Shown: one piece after another, positions 910-9,618 of the stretch
How the letters are laid out: the number at the start of each line of letters is the position of its first letter
Numbering within the stretch: position 1 is the first letter of the stretch
From: Cladosporium halotolerans
Taxonomy: Eukaryota
Direction of reading: 5' to 3'
DNA: 64,000 bases
Assembly (NCBI RefSeq): GCF_011745625.1
Contig: NW_027191463.1
Location: 558,001 to 622,000 of the forward strand
Made by a program: the position numbers and the translations under genes
Notes under the pieces: model-generated
Database searches by the model: none
What the model was told of the DNA's origin: nothing
What the model saw: the letters and a program-made list of their open reading frames with translations, nothing else

Positions 910-2148
910 TTACTTAGCGCCCTCTTCTACGTTCTTCGCGCCATACTTTTTGCCATAATTGAACACCTTCGCGTCCATATCAGGCCCGATAAAAAGCCAA
1001 GCAACAGCCACCACCCAAGACATAAGCGTATCAAGCAGCCAGTTGTTCCTCGCACTACCACCCAGCATACCCGCACGGAGCAACGAGGCAATAAACTGCG
1101 TCGTGACAATAAATCCACCGCTCTCCAGCCCTTTCACGGCCGCCGCCGCAACCTCGTCTTCCGTCTGAGGCGAGTCGTCTTTTTCCAGCAGTTTCGTCAC
1201 GGCGTGCTTCGTCAGGTTCTCGTTCTCGAAGCCAGGTGAGGTTATTGTGCCGGGCATGACAAGGTGGATGCTGATATCGCGGCCCGGCGCTTCGGCGCGC
1301 ACACTGGGGTCTTTGGATCGTCGCGAGCCATTGTAGATGTTCACCTCAGATCGGAGAGTGTCTGCGAGGGATCGCATGGCGGCTTTGGCTGGGCAGTAGG
1401 GCGCGTAGCCTGCTGCGCCGAGGAGGGCCGCGACGGAAGAAGTCATGATGAATTGCCTGGGTCCGGTTGATGCATCCTGGCTGCCGGCGGAGGGTTTTGT
1501 CCAGGCGTTTAGAGTCGTGTGAGCGAGGTAGGCTGCGCCCCAGTAGTTCATGTCCATTTGGCTTCGCAGGACTTCGATCGGGGTGTCTTTGAAAAGGGCC
1601 GGGTGGGCGCCTCCTGCCACTTGCCATACAATGTCCGGAGGCTGGCCGTGATTCCACTTGGTAGCTTCTGCCATGATTCGATCGTTCTCCTCTGGTTTGG
1701 TTACATCTGCCGAGATGGTGTGGAAGCGTTGTTTGGAAGTGTCTTTCGCGCTGGCCTGGATCAAATGTTAGTGGCAAAACGTCTTCTAGCACAGATATAC
1801 CATGCATGGACGAGCCACTTACGCTGATGTATTTCACAGCTTCAGCGAGTCGCTGCTGGTTCCTGGCAACGATGACAATGTTTGCTCCTTTTTTCGCCAG
1901 GATCTTCGCAACGCCACGGCCCATTCCAGTGGAGCCCCCAGTGAGCAGGACAGTCTATCGTGAAACCAACAATATTAGAACGTGGATTCGAACCCGACAC
2001 ATTGGCCTCTTAAGCAGAATATTGGATATCTTACCTTGCCATCAACCTCCAAATGGTTCTTGCGGCTGAAGAGGCCCATGATGTCTAGAGCGAATACGCT
2101 AATGATTACCGCGAGAACAACAGACGCCCAAAACAATCCACCTGCCAT
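910..2148 (-). CDS. TSC10: 3-ketodihydrosphingosine reductase (SDR); 3 exons
   Basis: Exons ~2148-2035, 1954-1823 and 1755-910 with GT-AG introns. N-terminal hydrophobic anchor, TGGSTGMG Rossmann motif, YCPAK catalytic motif, C-terminal hydrophobic segment. Confidence 0.85.
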
Positions 2149-2415
2149 CCTACCAGTGCTGTAACGCAGCACGAGAGTATGTAATCAACTGTTCATCCTA
2201 TACAGCAGAGCATAAGATCTCGAGATAGACGCCAGCTAATCCAGCCTTCACCGCCCAGGCGGCAGAAATTCGCGGCGGCAGCAAAGTGGGTCCCTGCAAC
2301 GTTCCTCTAGCGGCATCCAAAAAAGTTGAAGCCTCTCCAAGCGCCTGGCCGCCCATCGAAAGCCGAACGCTTTCGCAACAATTCATAAACACACAAGTCT
2401 TCACACACGGCCAAA

Positions 2416-3372
2416 ATGAAGGTCGGTAAGCCCACCTCAAAGCGCCAGAGCACGCGCCTGCGCCACAACATCAAGAAGAAGTCCGCCGAGAAGCAGCGCA
2501 AGGACCGCAAGGCGGCGAAGAACAACCCGCAATGGCGCAGTCGCTTGAAGAAGGACCCCGGCGTCCCCAACTTGTTCCCGTACAAGGCCAAGGTGCTGGC
2601 TGAGATCGAAGAGAGCAAGCGTAGGAAGGAGGAGGAGCAGATGCAGAGGCGCGAGACGGCCAAGGCTCGCAGGGAGGGTCGCGCGGTTGTCGACGAGGCC
2701 CTGCCCGGGCCTAGTGGGCGTGCTGTTGCTGGTGCTATGGAGCAGGAGGTGGAGATGGATGGCGATGAGGACGACATGGATATGGAGGATGATGGCAGCA
2801 ACCCTATGGCTGCGCTGCTTGCTTCGGCGCAAGCGAGGGCGGTGGAACATGATGAGGACGACGATGATGACGATGAGGACGATGATGAGGACGACGAGGA
2901 GGTTCCGTCTGGTGTTGCGATTCCGAAGAAGAAGGCACCAAACGCACAGCCCGAGAAGAAAGTCCTCCCGAAGCAAGCCCTCGCCGATCCCGTCAAAGCC
3001 GTTTCTGCGCTCATGGAGCGCATGCAGAAGACCGAGGATGGCGTGCAAAGACTGATTGATTACTACCAATTGCCACCCGTCGTCACCGCCAACAGCGATC
3101 TGGCGACTAGGTTTTTGGTAGACGTTGCACGCAAGCGTGGCCGTCTTGGAAGGGGTGGTGTACCGAACCTGCACGCCGCCTCGCTCGTCGTGCTAAACGA
3201 TGTAAACGAGGACAGGATTCGTCTTCCGACTGTGCAGGAGACCAAGAAGGTCGACCCCAAGGGCAAGTCTCAGGTCACTATCGTGCAGACCATGGCCGAG
3301 CCTTTCAAGATTGCTGGTCTGTGGGGAGACGAGACGAATGGCACTACGGATGAGATGGTGGTCGAGACTTGA
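2416..3372 (+). CDS. NUG1: Nug1/Grn1/GNL3-like nucleolar protein lacking the GTPase domain
   Basis: Basic N-terminus (SKRQSTRLRHNIKKK...KKDPGVPNLFPYK) typical of GNL3/Grn1, an acidic tract, and the C-terminal FLVDVARKRGRLGRGGVPNL motif. No G-motifs are present. Confidence 0.8.
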   Translation: MKVGKPTSKRQSTRLRHNIKKKSAEKQRKDRKAAKNNPQWRSRLKKDPGVPNLFPYKAKVLAEIEESKRRKEEEQMQRRETAKARREGRAVVDEALPGPSGRAVAGAMEQEVEMDGDEDDMDMEDDGSNPMAALLASAQARAVEHDEDDDDDDEDDDEDDEEVPSGVAIPKKKAPNAQPEKKVLPKQALADPVKAVSALMERMQKTEDGVQRLIDYYQLPPVVTANSDLATRFLVDVARKRGRLGRGGVPNLHAASLVVLNDVNEDRIRLPTVQETKKVDPKGKSQVTIVQTMAEPFKIAGLWGDETNGTTDEMVVET

Positions 3373-3924
3373 GCCGGTCCTGACCTTGTCTTCGATACCC
3401 AAATGAACACGAAGGGCTACAGGAAAGTCACGCTCACTTTACTGAAGCACATTTACCAGAGCATTTGGCCAAAGCTCTAAGCGGCCTACGTCCCTACACT
3501 CGCCGTATCCTCTGGAAGCATTCTAATGACCTGAAACTCGATTTCATGCAGAACATCGGCGGCACCGCTGGACAAATGCAACTCCGGCTATAGGGAGCGA
3601 ACAAACGGTTGGTTCATGTTCAGGTGTTGAGCACCTGCTCGGGCAAAAGAGGACGCCGAAAGAGCGTCTGTAATCGTTCAGCTGGCGCAATGTCATCATC
3701 TCGCTTGAAAAGGCGATCAGATAGCGCAGCCAATGCATAGTACACCGATTCATAGGCGCAAAATTTCACGTACTGCACCTTAGAGTTTAACCTCGGAAGG
3801 ATCACATGCGAAGCCGCCCCGTCCGTCGGGGTCTCACACCCTCCGCGAATTCGGCGGGACAATCGTCCGCTGCAACCTCAGCGCACTCCGCCTCGCCCGC
3901 CCACCCCAATCCGCGCCCCGTGTC

Positions 3925-4838
3925 ATGTCAAAACCCTCTCAAACATTTGTGCAGGTCAAGAATTGCGTACGTACCGTATCCGACTTGTGCAGGGTCGATC
4001 GCGACCTGGAGACCCCGTGTTAGGGCTGACCATGCCTCGGCTGTGCTTGTAGGAAGCTGCGCAGCAAAACCCTCTCTCGTGCGAGGTATGCCGGCGGCGG
4101 AAGACGAAGGTAAGGATCACCTACCACTTATGGTATTATTGGCTTGCGAACATGGATTGCTGATACCTTCCTCTTTCTTCACCAGTGTGACCGCAAGCTG
4201 TAAGCTCAGGCCTCGTCGCGTGGCGCGAACATACATGCTAGCCCTATCCTGACGCCCCCAGTCCATCGTGCTCGCACTGCATCGACGCGAAAGTCACCTG
4301 CCACTATCCCGAGGCGAAACAACGGGGTCCGCAAGTGGGCTACCTGGCCGTGCTGGAAAACCGGCTCGTGAACACAGAGGCAGTGCTCTACGATGCCTTG
4401 TCAAAGCTCTACCAGCAGCCGCCCGCCGAGGGCGAGAGCGTGGACCGGATCGTGAAGCGGCTACAAGACCGCTACTCCAACATGCCGTACTCGGCTAAGA
4501 CATCCGAATGGAACCAGCAGCCGCTGCTTGCCGAGGACGACCGCCAGAGGTGGTGGATTGCACACCAGCAGATTATGGCCGAGAGCGAGTCGCCTTATGC
4601 GTCTTCTGAGGTGCGCAAGAGGCGCGCCATGAGCCATTCATCGGCACATACGGTCGATACTGGCGAGCCTGGGTTCGTTGATGAGGCGCGCTCAAGAGGG
4701 CCCTATTCGCCTGCTGATGCGAGGTCATCCGAGCGACCGCTTTCGTCGAATCCCTCGCCTGGCGTCAATGTCCCCGCCAATGTTGATCCGGAGATTGCGG
4801 CGGAGCTTGATGATGAACAGCTTCAGAAGTACTTTTGA
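3925..4838 (+). CDS. Short Zn(II)2Cys6 transcription factor; 4 exons
   Basis: Exons 3925-3966, 4053-4109, 4186-4199 and 4262-4838 splice in frame to give CEVCRRRKTKCDRKLPSCSHCIDAKVTCHY, followed by a coiled coil (YLAVLENRLVNTEAVL). Confidence 0.85.
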
Positions 4839-5470
4839 GAGGTTCTAGGGTCGAATATGCGGCGAATGATGTTATCGTTACTGAGCGGCGATCGCCAACG
4901 CGCTTTGAGCACGATTCTGCACGGTTGAGAATGTGATGGGATTGAGTTCACTACTGAACTCACTCTTGTCGGGATTGGCAGCTCTGGGATGTGCCAATGA
5001 GGGAATGAAGACACAAAACGTGCAGATGAATTCGGTAATATCTCATCACGACTAGTAATGCTTTTGGTACATAGTACATATCTGGATGAAATGAACCGGA
5101 CATATCAGTCTAATAGTCGCCTCAAGGCTTACACCTTAATGGTTCCTTCCTCTGGCCTCTAGCCGAAGCTCTGCATCTGTGCTCACAAGCGCATGGCGAC
5201 TTTTGAGACGGTATTCTTGATGCACAACGCTTGTTGCCGTCCCTTTTTGGAAAGAATCGCGCTGTCAAGGCCCCCTCACTTCCGTTGCAGTGGTGGGAAC
5301 GAGGACTGACAGCAGCTGTCCATTCAGTTTGAAGACGGCCATTTGGAAGCAACCGCATCGTTATGGGTAAATATAGTACTCACGATGGTATCAAAGTGCT
5401 ATGTGCAAACATGCTCCCCAACACAAAAACGCCTCGCCGTTCAACAAAATAGTACATGCCAGCAAATGCC

Positions 5471-6306
5471 TCACCAAAACCAAAGCAGCATGAGACAGCA
5501 AATTGCAATGAAGCTGCCCAAGATAATCCCGTCTCTCCTCTTCTTCGACCCAATCCTCTGCATCAGCCCGTTGATCCCGGGTATCTGTGCCGCCGCGCCT
5601 GTGATCCGCCTCTGGATGCTGCTCAAGCTCTCTCGCTGCAGCGCAAAACTCTCATTGACGGCGTATGCCTGGCTCAGCACAGCGTCCGTCACGTTGTGGC
5701 TGTTATCCAGCCGCCGTCGCTCGTCGAGCATGTAGTCTGCTTCGGCGGATTCGGGGTTGTCGCGTGCGCGGTAGGCGTTGATGTCGGAGCGTACGTTGGA
5801 GAGGAGGTTTGCGCGGTCGCGTGCGGTGGATATCTGGGACTTTAATCGCGAGAGCTCGGTGCGGTGTTGTTGGAGGATTTCGCGGTGGCGGGCGAGGTTG
5901 GTTGACTTAAGGGCGGAGGTTGTAGGTTCGGAATCGAGGATGCGGGCGAGTTGCCCGATGAGAGTCGAGCGCTGGGAAGAAGTGTTAGGAAGGCGTGTCG
6001 CAAGATTGGGCTAACGTATGTTGTCTGGCAAACAAAAGACCAGCACATTCGGCATGGCTTATAGTCGCACCTTCTCGAGGATCTCATTTAGCTGCTGTTC
6101 CGTCTTCTGCTCCTCTTCGCTGGGTTTGGGATCGATGTCTGACTTTGCGGCAAATTGTGCGTATGTGTGGAATAGAGATTCGGTCTGGCCTATTCGTCAA
6201 CATATATTCCTCTTGCGACTTGAGGTATCCGCCTTGAACACACCTGTGTCTCCGCCGCTCTTGCCTGCTGGCGCACCTGCGCCCATGTCGCACCTGCAGC
6301 TGCCAT
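5471..6306 (-). CDS. GOS1: Golgi SNARE Gos1; 3 exons
   Basis: WAQVRQQAR N-terminus, LARHREIL, DRANLLSNVRSDI, IPGINGLMQRIGSKKRRDGIIL plus a C-terminal TM helix. Confidence 0.92.
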
Positions 6307-6669
6307 GTTGGGAGATGCAGGCGGCTGTGATAGTTGTAGTAAGGTATGCGTGTCCAGGCCAATCCTCCCCTGGGTGGTGTAAGTCCAAGAAATCGACAAG
6401 TCCGTCTTTCAAGATGATGCGCTCCGCGACCGAACACGACCCAAGCATCCTGCCGCATTGGGTGGCTAGCGTCTAAGCGTCAGGTGGAGGCCGGCGGCTA
6501 GCTCGCGGGATGCGCGGGTCTATCCGTCCAGGTGCGCGCTTGCCCGCACACAAAGCCAAGACTTCATTCACAGTCTTCTCTGGCTGAATTTGGACCCGCG
6601 ACTCCGACGAAGACCACCCGCGACTCTCGACGACGATAACGACCACCCACACCCCGACAATCCTTCATA

Positions 6670-7327
6670 ATGGTAATTTCCGACCGCACGCTCGCATCTG
6701 GAATGAGGAGGAAATGCTGACCGGTGGAATTTGGCAGTCGTCCGGCAAGGTCAGAGCCCAGCAGCTTTGGGGCAAGAACAAGGAGGATCTCCACAAGCAG
6801 CTCGATGAGCTCAAGCAGGAGCTCGTGGCTCTGCGCACCCAGAAGATCGCCGGTGGTGCCCAGTCGAAGCTGAGCAAGATGTGCGTCCAATCCCGAACCC
6901 GAGTTTGAAAGAGGCGGAAAAAAAGTGGAGGAACATTGAATGTGGAATCGAGGCACGCGAACAAGGTCGCCAGCAGAGAATCACAATACTGACGCAGATT
7001 GCGCAAACAGCCACGACGTCCGCAAGTCGATCGCCCGCGTCCTCACCGTCATCAACGCCAACCAGCGCGCCCAGCTCCGCATCTTCTACAAGGGCAAGAA
7101 GTACCTGCCGCTCGACCTCCGCGCCAAGCAGACTCGCGCCATCCGCAGGAGAATGACCAAGCACGAGCAGAACCTCGTCACCGAGAAGCAGGCCAAGAAG
7201 CAGAGGCACTTCCCTCAGCGCAACTACGCCGTCAAGGTGCGTACATGATGATGGACCACTGGGGTCGGACCATTTCTTTCGAGTCAGGACAAAATGTACT
7301 GACTTGGATGTTTCACAGGCGCAGTAA
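6670..7327 (+). CDS. RPL35: 60S ribosomal protein L35 (uL29); 4 exons
   Basis: ATG-only first exon (6670-6672). [62 protein letters not shown]. Confidence 0.97.
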
Positions 7328-8526
7328 GGGTTTTCGTTGCTGGACTGCTGGTGCATTTGGGAGCGTGTGCTTTTCATGGCGCGATGGGAAAAACTACCAT
7401 TCTAACTCCGTAGCGGATGAAATGCTCAAAAGTGCAAACGATGATACCCTTTTCTTCCGAGACTTTTCGCTGTCGTCAATTATTCGGGTCTCAGATTATG
7501 CAGGCGGATACATGGGTTCACAAATGCCCTGAACATTGATCATCTCACAGTAACCCCCGCCGCCATCTCTGGTCTTTGCCAGCCTTGCGATTGTCCGCGC
7601 GACACCCTTCATGATACGCCTCTCAACTGCTCGGCACAATCCTCGATCAACAGCACGGCTCTCCACCTACGGTGACTGAACTTTATATTACTGCATATCT
7701 CGCACTGGAAGGACTACATTTACCAAGGCACGTGCTTGAGGACTGCACGGCATCCGACTCTAGCCTGTTCTAGTGTTCTAGAAACCGAGAGGAACACAGG
7801 CAAGGGGCCGGCATGGCCCGATCTCGTCATGCAACTGGATAGAGGATCAAGCATTCAGTCCCGATCAGCAACAGCTGTCGCCACACGCGCCTGCGAGTAC
7901 CATGCGAACCAACGCATAGGGCGTTCCCAGTCATCACTCGTGCTCTGTTCACGGGGATATATGGTCTGTACGTGGTCCACGCAAGGTCTTGAGAGTAAAA
8001 TTGTTGTACATAGTAGCTACATAGGCGGTCGTCTCCTCCAAGATGATTACAAAATCCCTTCTTTTCATACATTGTACATCACATCCCTCCTCTCGTGCGG
8101 AGTCTGTGAGACGTGCAGTTTCCCTTCGCTCTTGCCAGTGAAGGTCTCGTTATGAATGTATTGTTTATCCCTTCCTGCTGGAGATTCCTGCGCTGGTCCA
8201 AGTCTATTCACCCGCAATTCTGTGGTTTGTACAAGGCAGAGTACGGCCTCTGGCATGGCTTCAAAGCATTCTCCACTCTCTGCGATGCCGCCTGCCCATA
8301 CGCCGGTGGTAAAGCAGATCGAAGACGAAATTGGCGTGTCCCAATCGAAGCGCTGGATCAATGCTACCATTCATGCCGCCAGATGATCCTGGGAGTCGAA
8401 GCGACTGGTTGCAGGAGTGAGACTTGCTTGAGTCTCTCAGACCGTAGACTCGGATTTTTAGCAAGCAGCAGCGTTCGTCTGCATTTATAGACGGAGGCAA
8501 GTGGTAGGATATCGACAACACAGACT

Positions 8527-9618
8527 TTAAGCCGTGGCTGCCTTCGACTCCCGACCAGTCACATCATCAACGGCATCCTCAAGAGACGGCTGCGGCTTCT
8601 CAGACTTCGGCATCCTGGCCTCATGAATAAGCTTGCTCAAGCAAGAGACCAAGCTCTCCTTCTCCTCCGGCTCCGCATTCGCACTGCCCGCCCAACGGAT
8701 GCGATTCTCCTCATCCACAAGGTACACATACCCCGTCACGTCGTTCAGCAACCCAATCGCCTCCTTCATGACATCCGACACGCCGCGGTACACCATGAAA
8801 TACCGCCCTTGCTCCTCGAGGCTCCGCGTCCGGCGCAGGTTGCCCTTGAACAGCTGCAGAATCCACCACTTCAGCCAGTTCTCCTCGCGGTTGATCTCCA
8901 CCACCTGCGCGCAGTCCTTCGCATCCGCCAGCACCTGGTGCAGCGCCGCGTTCTGCTTCGGCGACACGAACGTCGCCGTCTGGTTCACCGCCCACTGGCT
9001 GCTCACGATGCTCACGACCGACACCTTGCCCCTCGTCGCCTCGCACGAGTTGCGCCCGTACCCTCTGTATCCGTCTTTCGAGTCGACCCTCGCGGCGTCT
9101 TTGCGCAGCGTCTTGCCGAAGAAGTTCGGGAAGAACAGCGCGTGCTCCGCCCGGAACAGCCGCGGCGGCGCGACGAACTGCTTGCCCTTGTGGAAGCGCA
9201 GGTTGCTCCAGTCGCGGAAGTACGGCTTGGAGATCTGCTTCGTCATCCGGCTGCGCTTCTGCAAGTGTTTCTCGTAGTTGACGAAGTCGTCGCGGCGCTG
9301 GCGCAGGGAGCGCAGGTCGAGCCCCATGTTGTCGCCGGGGACCGGGGGGTAGGGCATTCCGATGGGCCGGCTGAGGGGTGTGGGTTGGAATTCGTCGCTG
9401 TCGTCGGGTTGCGCGCGCAGCTTGTAGCCGGGGAGGTCGGTGGGGACGGGTTTGTTGAAGGGAGCTGGGGGAGGGGGTTGTTTTTGCGTGGGTTTGGGGT
9501 CTTTTTGCGAGGGTTGCGAGGCGTAGGTTCGACGGTTTGTGAGGGTGCAGGAGGAGCGGGTTTCGGTTAGGGCGAGGAGGCGGAGGGCCTGGAGGCCCAG
9601 AGGTGAGGGCGCCTTCAT
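8527..9618 (-). CDS. ATP10: Mitochondrial ATP synthase assembly factor Atp10
   Basis: Presequence-like start MKAPSPLG; LSRPIGMPYPP, LFFPNFFGKTL, GYVYLVDEENRIRWAGS motifs. Confidence 0.9.
   Translation of the reverse strand: MKAPSPLGLQALRLLALTETRSSCTLTNRRTYASQPSQKDPKPTQKQPPPPAPFNKPVPTDLPGYKLRAQPDDSDEFQPTPLSRPIGMPYPPVPGDNMGLDLRSLRQRRDDFVNYEKHLQKRSRMTKQISKPYFRDWSNLRFHKGKQFVAPPRLFRAEHALFFPNFFGKTLRKDAARVDSKDGYRGYGRNSCEATRGKVSVVSIVSSQWAVNQTATFVSPKQNAALHQVLADAKDCAQVVEINREENWLKWWILQLFKGNLRRTRSLEEQGRYFMVYRGVSDVMKEAIGLLNDVTGYVYLVDEENRIRWAGSANAEPEEKESLVSCLSKLIHEARMPKSEKPQPSLEDAVDDVTGRESKAATA

Follow-up and report, generated by a model that had tools for sequence, protein, structure and literature searches.

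The window analysed here is a stretch of 64,000 nucleotides (nt) from Cladosporium halotolerans (contig NW_027191463.1 of assembly GCF_011745625.1, positions 558,001 to 622,000), and the coordinates below are those of the window. At 2416..3372 on its forward strand, a single open frame forms an intron-less coding sequence (CDS) of 318 amino acids for an orthologue of the ribosome assembly factor Nug1 that lacks the GTPase (G) domain. Judged from its N domain, its C domain, its tree position and its being the only such gene, the protein is an orthologue by descent of Nug1/Grn1/GNL3. Its only Pfam match is GN3L_Grn1 (residues 13-88, E 3e-27). Chaetomium Nug1 (PDB 8pv1_CL, 558 amino acids) aligns to it in two parts, residues 3-160 of the query with 8-171 and residues 183-308 with 404-549, the latter at E 7.5e-19. 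Sphaceloma Nug1, the nearest full-length relative at 537 amino acids and thus 219 residues longer, is likewise matched in two pieces, its residues 1-167 and 400-525. This two-piece alignment bears out the initial annotation of the gene, which described one uninterrupted open reading frame (ORF) joining a Grn1/GNL3 N-terminus and acidic linker to the helical region that normally follows the GTPase domain. The G motifs are absent as it had said: none of the G5/G4/G1/G3 type occurs anywhere in the 318 residues, MMR_HSR1 is not matched in a Pfam search, and a Nug1 G-domain profile matched 0 of 121 short proteins (the query included) at E<=10.

All parts of the gene lie on the forward strand. The basic N-terminal domain (residues 1-90, 2416..2685) holds the GN3L_Grn1 match and model helices at 13-35, 38-45 and 57-86; its yeast counterpart serves in nucleolar targeting and binds rRNA, Dbp10 and Spb1 (PMC10899779). 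It is followed by a first acidic linker (residues 91-128, 2686..2799), flexible and poorly aligned, with a predicted local distance difference test score (pLDDT) below 50 at 93-121, and then by the NPMAALLASA helix (residues 129-145, 2800..2850; model helix 130-145), common to short and long forms. This helix, lying between two disordered linkers, is almost invariant in short and long Pezizomycotina Nug1, and no described partner for it was found. The second acidic tract (residues 146-184, 2851..2967) contains the deletion junction, as placed by alignment, motif spacing and bridging contigs, and takes the place of some 250 residues of the full-length protein that comprise the whole G domain and its flanking helices. 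The helical C domain (residues 185-271, 2968..3228), with the RbgA/YlqF/Nog2 C-terminal fold, is delimited by the model (pLDDT 69-91 by block), by structure matches and by its substitution pattern. Within it lies the basic loop VARKRGRLGRGGVPN (residues 237-251, 3124..3168), in which 14 of 15 positions are at least 90% conserved in both forms and which is likely an rRNA-binding surface, judging by the RbgA C domain (PMC3597669). A C-terminal FxIxGL motif (residues 287-305, 3274..3330) is partly remodelled in the alignment and falls in a low-confidence part of the model (pLDDT 53-63).

The extent of the deletion is larger than first described. The G domain is indeed missing, but alignment and a full-length model show that the helix preceding G5 and the linker helix following G3 have gone along with the G5-G4-G1-G2-G3 core, which places the junction at about 2851-2967. 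The distance from N to C motifs agrees, with a median of 195 in 118 short proteins versus 401.5 in 80 longer ones. As the short protein has no central G5-G4-G1-G2-G3 domain (DAR, NKxD, GxxxxGKS, T, DxxG), it is not classed as a circularly permuted GTPase, and the residues for K+-stimulated GTP binding and hydrolysis in Chaetomium Nug1 (PMC4770245) fall in the deleted part. Nor is it a pseudo-GTPase, because the G-domain fold itself is gone: there is no room for it, and the short-form model has no strands of at least three residues versus six or more in the full-length model.

AlphaFold2, run with 96 sequences, places a confidently predicted helical domain at about 183-270, preceded by three N helices and the middle helix, with both linkers disordered; for the whole model the mean pLDDT is 67 and the predicted template modelling score 0.34. 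Compared with known structures (VIA), residues 181-280 match Nog2 (3jct_m; Z 9.7, root-mean-square deviation 3.5, 84 aligned) and YlqF (1puj; Z 8.9, deviation 2.0, 79 aligned). The top eight rows of a wide structure search all belong to the RbgA/YlqF family (Z 6.3-9.7), the next, unrelated row having Z 4.8, and the best Foldseek matches are Chaetomium Nug1 chains. The C domain is therefore predicted to keep the RbgA/Nog2 fold.

The integrity of the junction was examined with contigs from four of 24 runs, belonging to four different studies; being assembled contigs, they give no measure of expression level. A 43.6-kb DNA-type contig runs unbroken and ungapped through 1500-4200, showing 10 differences. 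The widest single RNA-type contig over the gene (run X6, record 22) covers 2330..3752 on the forward strand without gaps, its ends not being mapped transcript ends, and the RNA nature of run X6 is a guess from its skipping two introns of the upstream gene and its zero depth in intergenic bins. A metatranscriptome contig (X16, record 9) spans 2401-3550; it differs in length only by 9 nt inserted in frame within the acidic tract and by a 1-nt gap in the 3' untranslated region. An X15 contig crosses the junction from 2811. Because DNA and RNA-type contigs cross the junction without an insert, there is neither an assembly collapse nor a hidden exon. The initial annotation had denied any room for such exons and proposed a coverage check across about 2900-2990, where independent contigs now bridge the sequence. 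The gene is transcribed, as the RNA-type contigs show, and 10 of the 14 CDS substitutions between strains are silent. The 9-nt in-frame repeat differs between strains at position 2868, so the length of the linker varies among close relatives.

Searches of this assembly with the protein itself, the GN3L_Grn1 Pfam family and two full-length Nug1 proteins each returned a single locus. MMR_HSR1 has 26 matches, three of them circularly permuted GTPases that appear Nog2-, Lsg1- and Mtg1-like; a Nog1-like gene seems to be present as well, all four being named by reading the sequences and not from a database. The G region of Sphaceloma Nug1 matches other GTPases of the assembly at only 33-46% identity, whereas genuine Nug1 G domains from metagenome loci reach 57-81%. 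With these figures and a single GN3L_Grn1 match, the suggestion that the gene is a derived paralogue is not borne out in this assembly, and the second full-length NUG1 for which a search had been proposed was not found in this draft of 691 contigs. A separate ORF with a Nug1-type G domain was not found either, within the limits of assembly completeness, and the gene is not treated as the product of a fission. Genes for Mak16, Rrp1, Rpf1 and Dbp10 are present; co-loss of docking partners was accordingly rejected for these four, with Nsa1, Spb1 and Rix7 outside the search.

The short form extends well beyond C. halotolerans. The G domain is absent from all of the 120 best homologues listed out of 1057 matches, every one of the 96 aligned short members carries GN3L_Grn1 alone (Pfam), and the same junction recurs in more than 100 protein clusters. 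In the ESM Atlas the short form has its own cluster of 65 with GN3L_Grn1 only, and the C domain alone returned only unnamed, unrelated matches there. The closest named relative among the matches listed is from Cladosporium fusiforme (83%). Short forms were found in Cladosporium, Cryoendolithus, Peltaster, Hortaea, Teratosphaeria, Friedmanniomyces, Salinomyces, Acidomyces, Oleoguttula, Meristemomyces, Vermiconidia, Saxophila, Neohortaea, Acrodontium, Lecanosticta, Septoria, Dissoconium, Zymoseptoria and Cercospora, that is, in Cladosporiales, Mycosphaerellales and Peltaster. A form of 520-545 amino acids with MMR_HSR1 occurs in the sister orders Myriangiales (Sphaceloma, Elsinoe, Myriangium) and Dothideales (Aureobasidium, Zalaria, Neodothiora) and in more distant Dothideomycetes. 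Most genera are assigned to the orders in which we presume them to stand, three taxa and the subclass having been looked up, and the orders sampled leave out Capnodiales s. str., Racodiales, Phaeothecales, Neophaeothecales, Comminutisporales and Arthrocatenales. Two motif-like strings in short proteins, a G5-like one in P0109 and a G1-like one at the C-tail of L052, were dismissed as chance matches, and a 199-residue Pseudocercospora protein (P0126) is probably a gene-model error.

In a tree of shared N and C columns (61 rows, FastTree), all 24 short forms make one clade inside Dothideomycetidae with support 0.994; in a quick IQ-TREE run of 60 rows, with the long-branched Coniocarpon row left out, its support in the Shimodaira-Hasegawa-like approximate likelihood ratio test is 100. 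Because the short forms make one clade, a single ancient in-frame deletion of about 210 residues probably preceded the split of Cladosporiales and Mycosphaerellales. The crown age of Mycosphaerellales is given as 187 million years (My) and that of Capnodiales s. lat. as 242 My in the abstract or 213 My in the results of the same paper (PMC12715516). Aligning relatives to date the deletion, as had been proposed, thus points to an old, clade-wide loss, and it also uncovered a remodelling of the C domain; the initial annotation had stated neither. The only neighbour common to short- and long-form loci is a match to a transporter family of the major facilitator superfamily type, and microsynteny is not conserved.

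Coding constraint is evident at all 10 loci examined, each of which has an open frame. The ratio of nonsynonymous to synonymous substitution rates (dN/dS) is 0.12-0.21 for the whole gene (9 of 10 pairs computable), 0.05-0.16 for the C domain (8 of 10) and 0.13-0.24 for the N part (10 of 10), values that are rough with silent sites near saturation. By this sequence comparison the short Nug1 is under purifying selection. Positions with conservation of 90% or more among 93 full-length proteins were also scored in 96 short ones. None of 39 was lost in the N part and none of 12 in the NPMAALLASA helix, versus 24 of 67 in the C part, where 33 were kept and 10 partly kept. The losses concentrate at the junction (LLNAxPPK), DWRDGRIQGW and EWAxEFKL; the basic loop VARKRGRLGxGGVPN is retained. 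On the stem branch of the short clade the C part underwent 0.58 changes per site versus 0.05 in the N part, on a single fixed topology, and new C-domain positions became fixed, for example L257, L260, L270 and G209. We infer that the replaced residues faced the G domain in the full-length form. The initial annotation had proposed a naturally GTPase-free scaffold version of Nug1; single copy, transcription, purifying selection and lineage-wide occurrence support this proposal, in which the protein would work as a scaffold.

The reading that we favour, with a probability of about 0.7, is that the gene, the only Nug1 detected, encodes a nucleotide-independent, two-headed tether in nucleolar pre-60S assembly. 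One head would sit at the forming peptidyl-transferase centre and the other on rRNA elsewhere. As in yeast, the N-terminal helices would bind the pre-60S particle close to helix 89 and bring in or position Dbp10 and Spb1; residues 1-67 of yeast Nug1 suffice for Dbp10 binding, and the N-terminus, which binds Spb1 too, is located beside H89-H92 (PMC10899779). The C domain, on a flexible acidic tether of about 40 residues, would use its invariant basic loop to contact rRNA. The site is probably solvent-exposed and close to the Mak16-Rrp1-Rpf1 module, since human GNL3 has its GTP-binding domain there, next to MAK16, WDR74, RPF1 and RRP1 (bioRxiv 10.1101/2023.03.14.532478). A complex prediction of residues 125-310 with Mak16, Rrp1 and Rpf1 fragments scored 0.00, the chains having been folded without alignments, and speaks neither for nor against this placement; the accessible part of the PMC8884084 supplement shows no Nug1 cross-links. 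In the ancestor, bound GTP would mainly have kept the G domain rigid and thereby presented the C domain. After the loss, replacement of the residues that packed on the G domain would have left a C domain stable alone, with binding and release independent of nucleotide.

Bassler, Kallas and Hurt are said to have found in 2006 that the middle GTPase domain of yeast Nug1 is non-essential for growth and that the N and C domains are essential. Taken together with data on yeast mutants and on the RbgA C domain, this suggests that GTP in Nug1 is mainly structural, and such a reportedly non-essential middle domain makes its natural loss less surprising. The surprise is lowered also by the dispensability of hydrolysis in yeast, where growth is normal in mutants of hydrolysis or of the K+ loop, and where none of the six G-motif mutants tested is lethal (PMC4770245). 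RbgA cannot bind the ribosome properly without its homologous C domain (PMC3597669). When GTP is depleted with mycophenolic acid, plant NSN1 moves out of the nucleolus, an exit that depends on its G motifs (PMC4588883).

Several observations weigh against the favoured tether. The G domain is not dispensable everywhere, because nucleotide-binding mutants of yeast Nug1 grow slowly and lose the H30/ES12 crosslink (PMC4770245), worm NST-1 without the G1 region fails in the germ line (PMC2515194) and human GNL3L requires hydrolysis (PMC12956347). The contact with the Mak16 module may be made by the G or by the C domain, and the C-domain contacts with the lost G domain are themselves deduced from sequence. 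The assembly of 691 contigs comes with no completeness figure, and the absence of a second copy is strong, not absolute. In a tree of the N part only, support for the short clade is weak (0.62-0.74) and the long-branched Coniocarpon groups with it. Finally, three full-length records and one fragment (P0304, P0306, P0516, P0517) are labelled Elasticomyces elasticus, a species of Teratosphaeriaceae, and conflict with a clean single loss. The full-length proteins so labelled never fall inside the short clade, and one adjoins Dothideales plus Myriangiales (0.995) in a full-length tree; the records may carry a wrong label or represent a retained old copy. The accessible part of PMC11412873 does not mention Elasticomyces.

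It is unlikely that, with the N-terminal part keeping its pre-60S role, the freed C domain was redeployed after the deletion, be it for a new partner, a new site or self-association. The tenfold burst of C-part change on the stem branch, followed by strong constraint, would fit such a redeployment, as would the several newly fixed positions. The basic loop and helical core are nevertheless ancestral, the fold is predicted to be unchanged, and loss of a domain interface is the simpler account of the changes. Somewhat less likely again is a GTP-dependent step supplied in trans by Nog2 or Nog1, with the short Nug1 as an adaptor. Candidate donors with G motifs are present in the Nog2-, Lsg1-, Mtg1- and Nog1-like genes, and the yeast factor needs nucleotide binding (PMC4770245). 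However, no additional circularly permuted GTPase gene or Nug1-like G domain was found in the assembly, the lost C-domain residues are those that would pack against a G domain, and Nog2 acts at a later step in yeast (PMC12956347).

We consider it improbable that the short gene is a paralogue derived from an old duplication, with a full-length copy still kept by some members of the clade and perhaps hidden in unassembled sequence of this draft genome. The Elasticomyces-labelled proteins do branch where a full-length copy belonging to the clade could sit, but that label is possibly wrong, and no other named full-length protein of Cladosporiales or Mycosphaerellales appears among the best 120 matches of Sphaceloma Nug1 or among 119 further longer proteins. 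This assembly has a single match, and the short forms of Zymoseptoria, Septoria, Cercospora and Peltaster lie on contigs several megabases long. That the gene is a decaying pseudogene or an artefact of assembly or annotation, for which nothing speaks other than the low-complexity acidic tract at the junction, has practically no chance, being refuted by clade-wide short homologues that share the junction, by the agreement of contigs from four studies that bridge it, and by open frames with low dN/dS.

Among known systems, the short protein most resembles Nug1 of yeast and Chaetomium (PDB 3jct_s, 8i9t_CL, 8i9w_CL) and Grn1 of S. pombe (8esq_s), with which it shares the GN3L_Grn1 N-terminus, the NPMAALLASA helix, a helical C domain with basic loop, a C-terminal FxLxGLW-type motif, single copy and orthology by tree. 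It differs from them in being some 210-220 residues shorter, without the G5-G4-G1-G2-G3 domain, the K+-coordinating Asn or the linker helix, and in having DWRDGRIQGW, LLNAxPPK and EWAxEFKL of the C part replaced. The yeast Nug1 reportedly engineered without its middle domain would have the same layout, whereas the short form is natural, fixed across two orders and remodelled in its C domain. Human GNL3 (nucleostemin) and GNL3L share the homologous N-terminal domain (8fkp_NB, E 1.6e-5) and a role in 60S assembly, but both retain the G domain; the G3 glycine position is occupied by Ser308 in GNL3, and GNL3L depends on hydrolysis (PMC12956347). The predicted fold of residues 181-280 is that of the C-terminal helical (ANTAR-like) domain of the RbgA/YlqF family (Nog2, Lsg1, MTG1, RbgA), which in those proteins follows a G domain and in the short form stands alone on a flexible tether.

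In this lineage evolution has carried out a G-domain deletion and kept the outcome over a very long time, providing a natural test of the roles of GTP and of the C domain in Nug1/nucleostemin. Yeast Nug1 needs nucleotide binding and not hydrolysis, and its C domain is little described (PMC4770245). The short protein would set apart the important surfaces (the N helix, the middle helix and the basic loop) from those serving only the G domain. Database names such as 'GTPase grn1', 'nuclear GTP-binding protein' and 'GNL3 N-terminal domain-containing' attach to short proteins, so that a non-GTPase carries a GTPase name across two orders rich in crop pathogens and extremophiles. Although the Nug1 factor itself is known, its clade-wide natural loss of the GTPase domain is apparently unreported: no natural GTPase-less Nug1 was found in the literature searched, which excluded most subscription papers and supplements, and the accessible part of a YRG survey (PMC5224878) mentions no such form. 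More tentatively, and at rather long odds, Cladosporiales and Mycosphaerellales, a large lineage some 190-240 My old, may have dropped one of the six GTPase steps that are conserved in making cytoplasmic ribosomes. Should the G domain of Nug1 be a sensor tying nucleolar 60S assembly to the GTP pool, that link would then be cut in slow-growing, stress-tolerant fungi, and the freed C domain would be a minimal stand-alone rRNA-binding module.

Outside the clade, all 81 other-lineage representatives of at least 400 amino acids retain some G-domain signal. Five of these Nug1 homologues (P0180, P0193, P0198, P0205, P0241) have weak G-domain scores of 17-36 bits and altered motifs; their N domain is kept, what remains of the G domain has an altered P-loop or lacks G3/G4, and two have Arg in place of the Walker A Lys and no MMR_HSR1 match. 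A relaxed need for the G domain in other Nug1 lineages, with independent drift to pseudo-GTPases, is possible from these sequences. In keeping with such drift, 137 proteins, mostly from basidiomycetes, form an ESM Atlas cluster that has GN3L_Grn1 and lacks a common GTPase family, and decayed P-loops of this kind would, if the drift is real, make G-domain loss a repeated trend.

Head-to-head with the Nug1 gene, at 910-2147 on the reverse strand, lies a short-chain dehydrogenase gene (Pfam adh_short), TSC10-like by reading of its sequence, whose introns at 1755-1821 and 1955-2034 are spliced out in the X6 contigs. Related loci do not have this gene next to Nug1. Downstream, 4088-9618 holds a small Zn-cluster-like gene (the tested exon has no Pfam match), a GOS1-like V-SNARE gene (reverse strand), the gene for ribosomal protein L35/uL29 (forward) and ATP10 (reverse). 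Conservation of the order ZnCys-GOS1-RPL35 is confined to close Cladosporium-like loci (L037, L042, L043).
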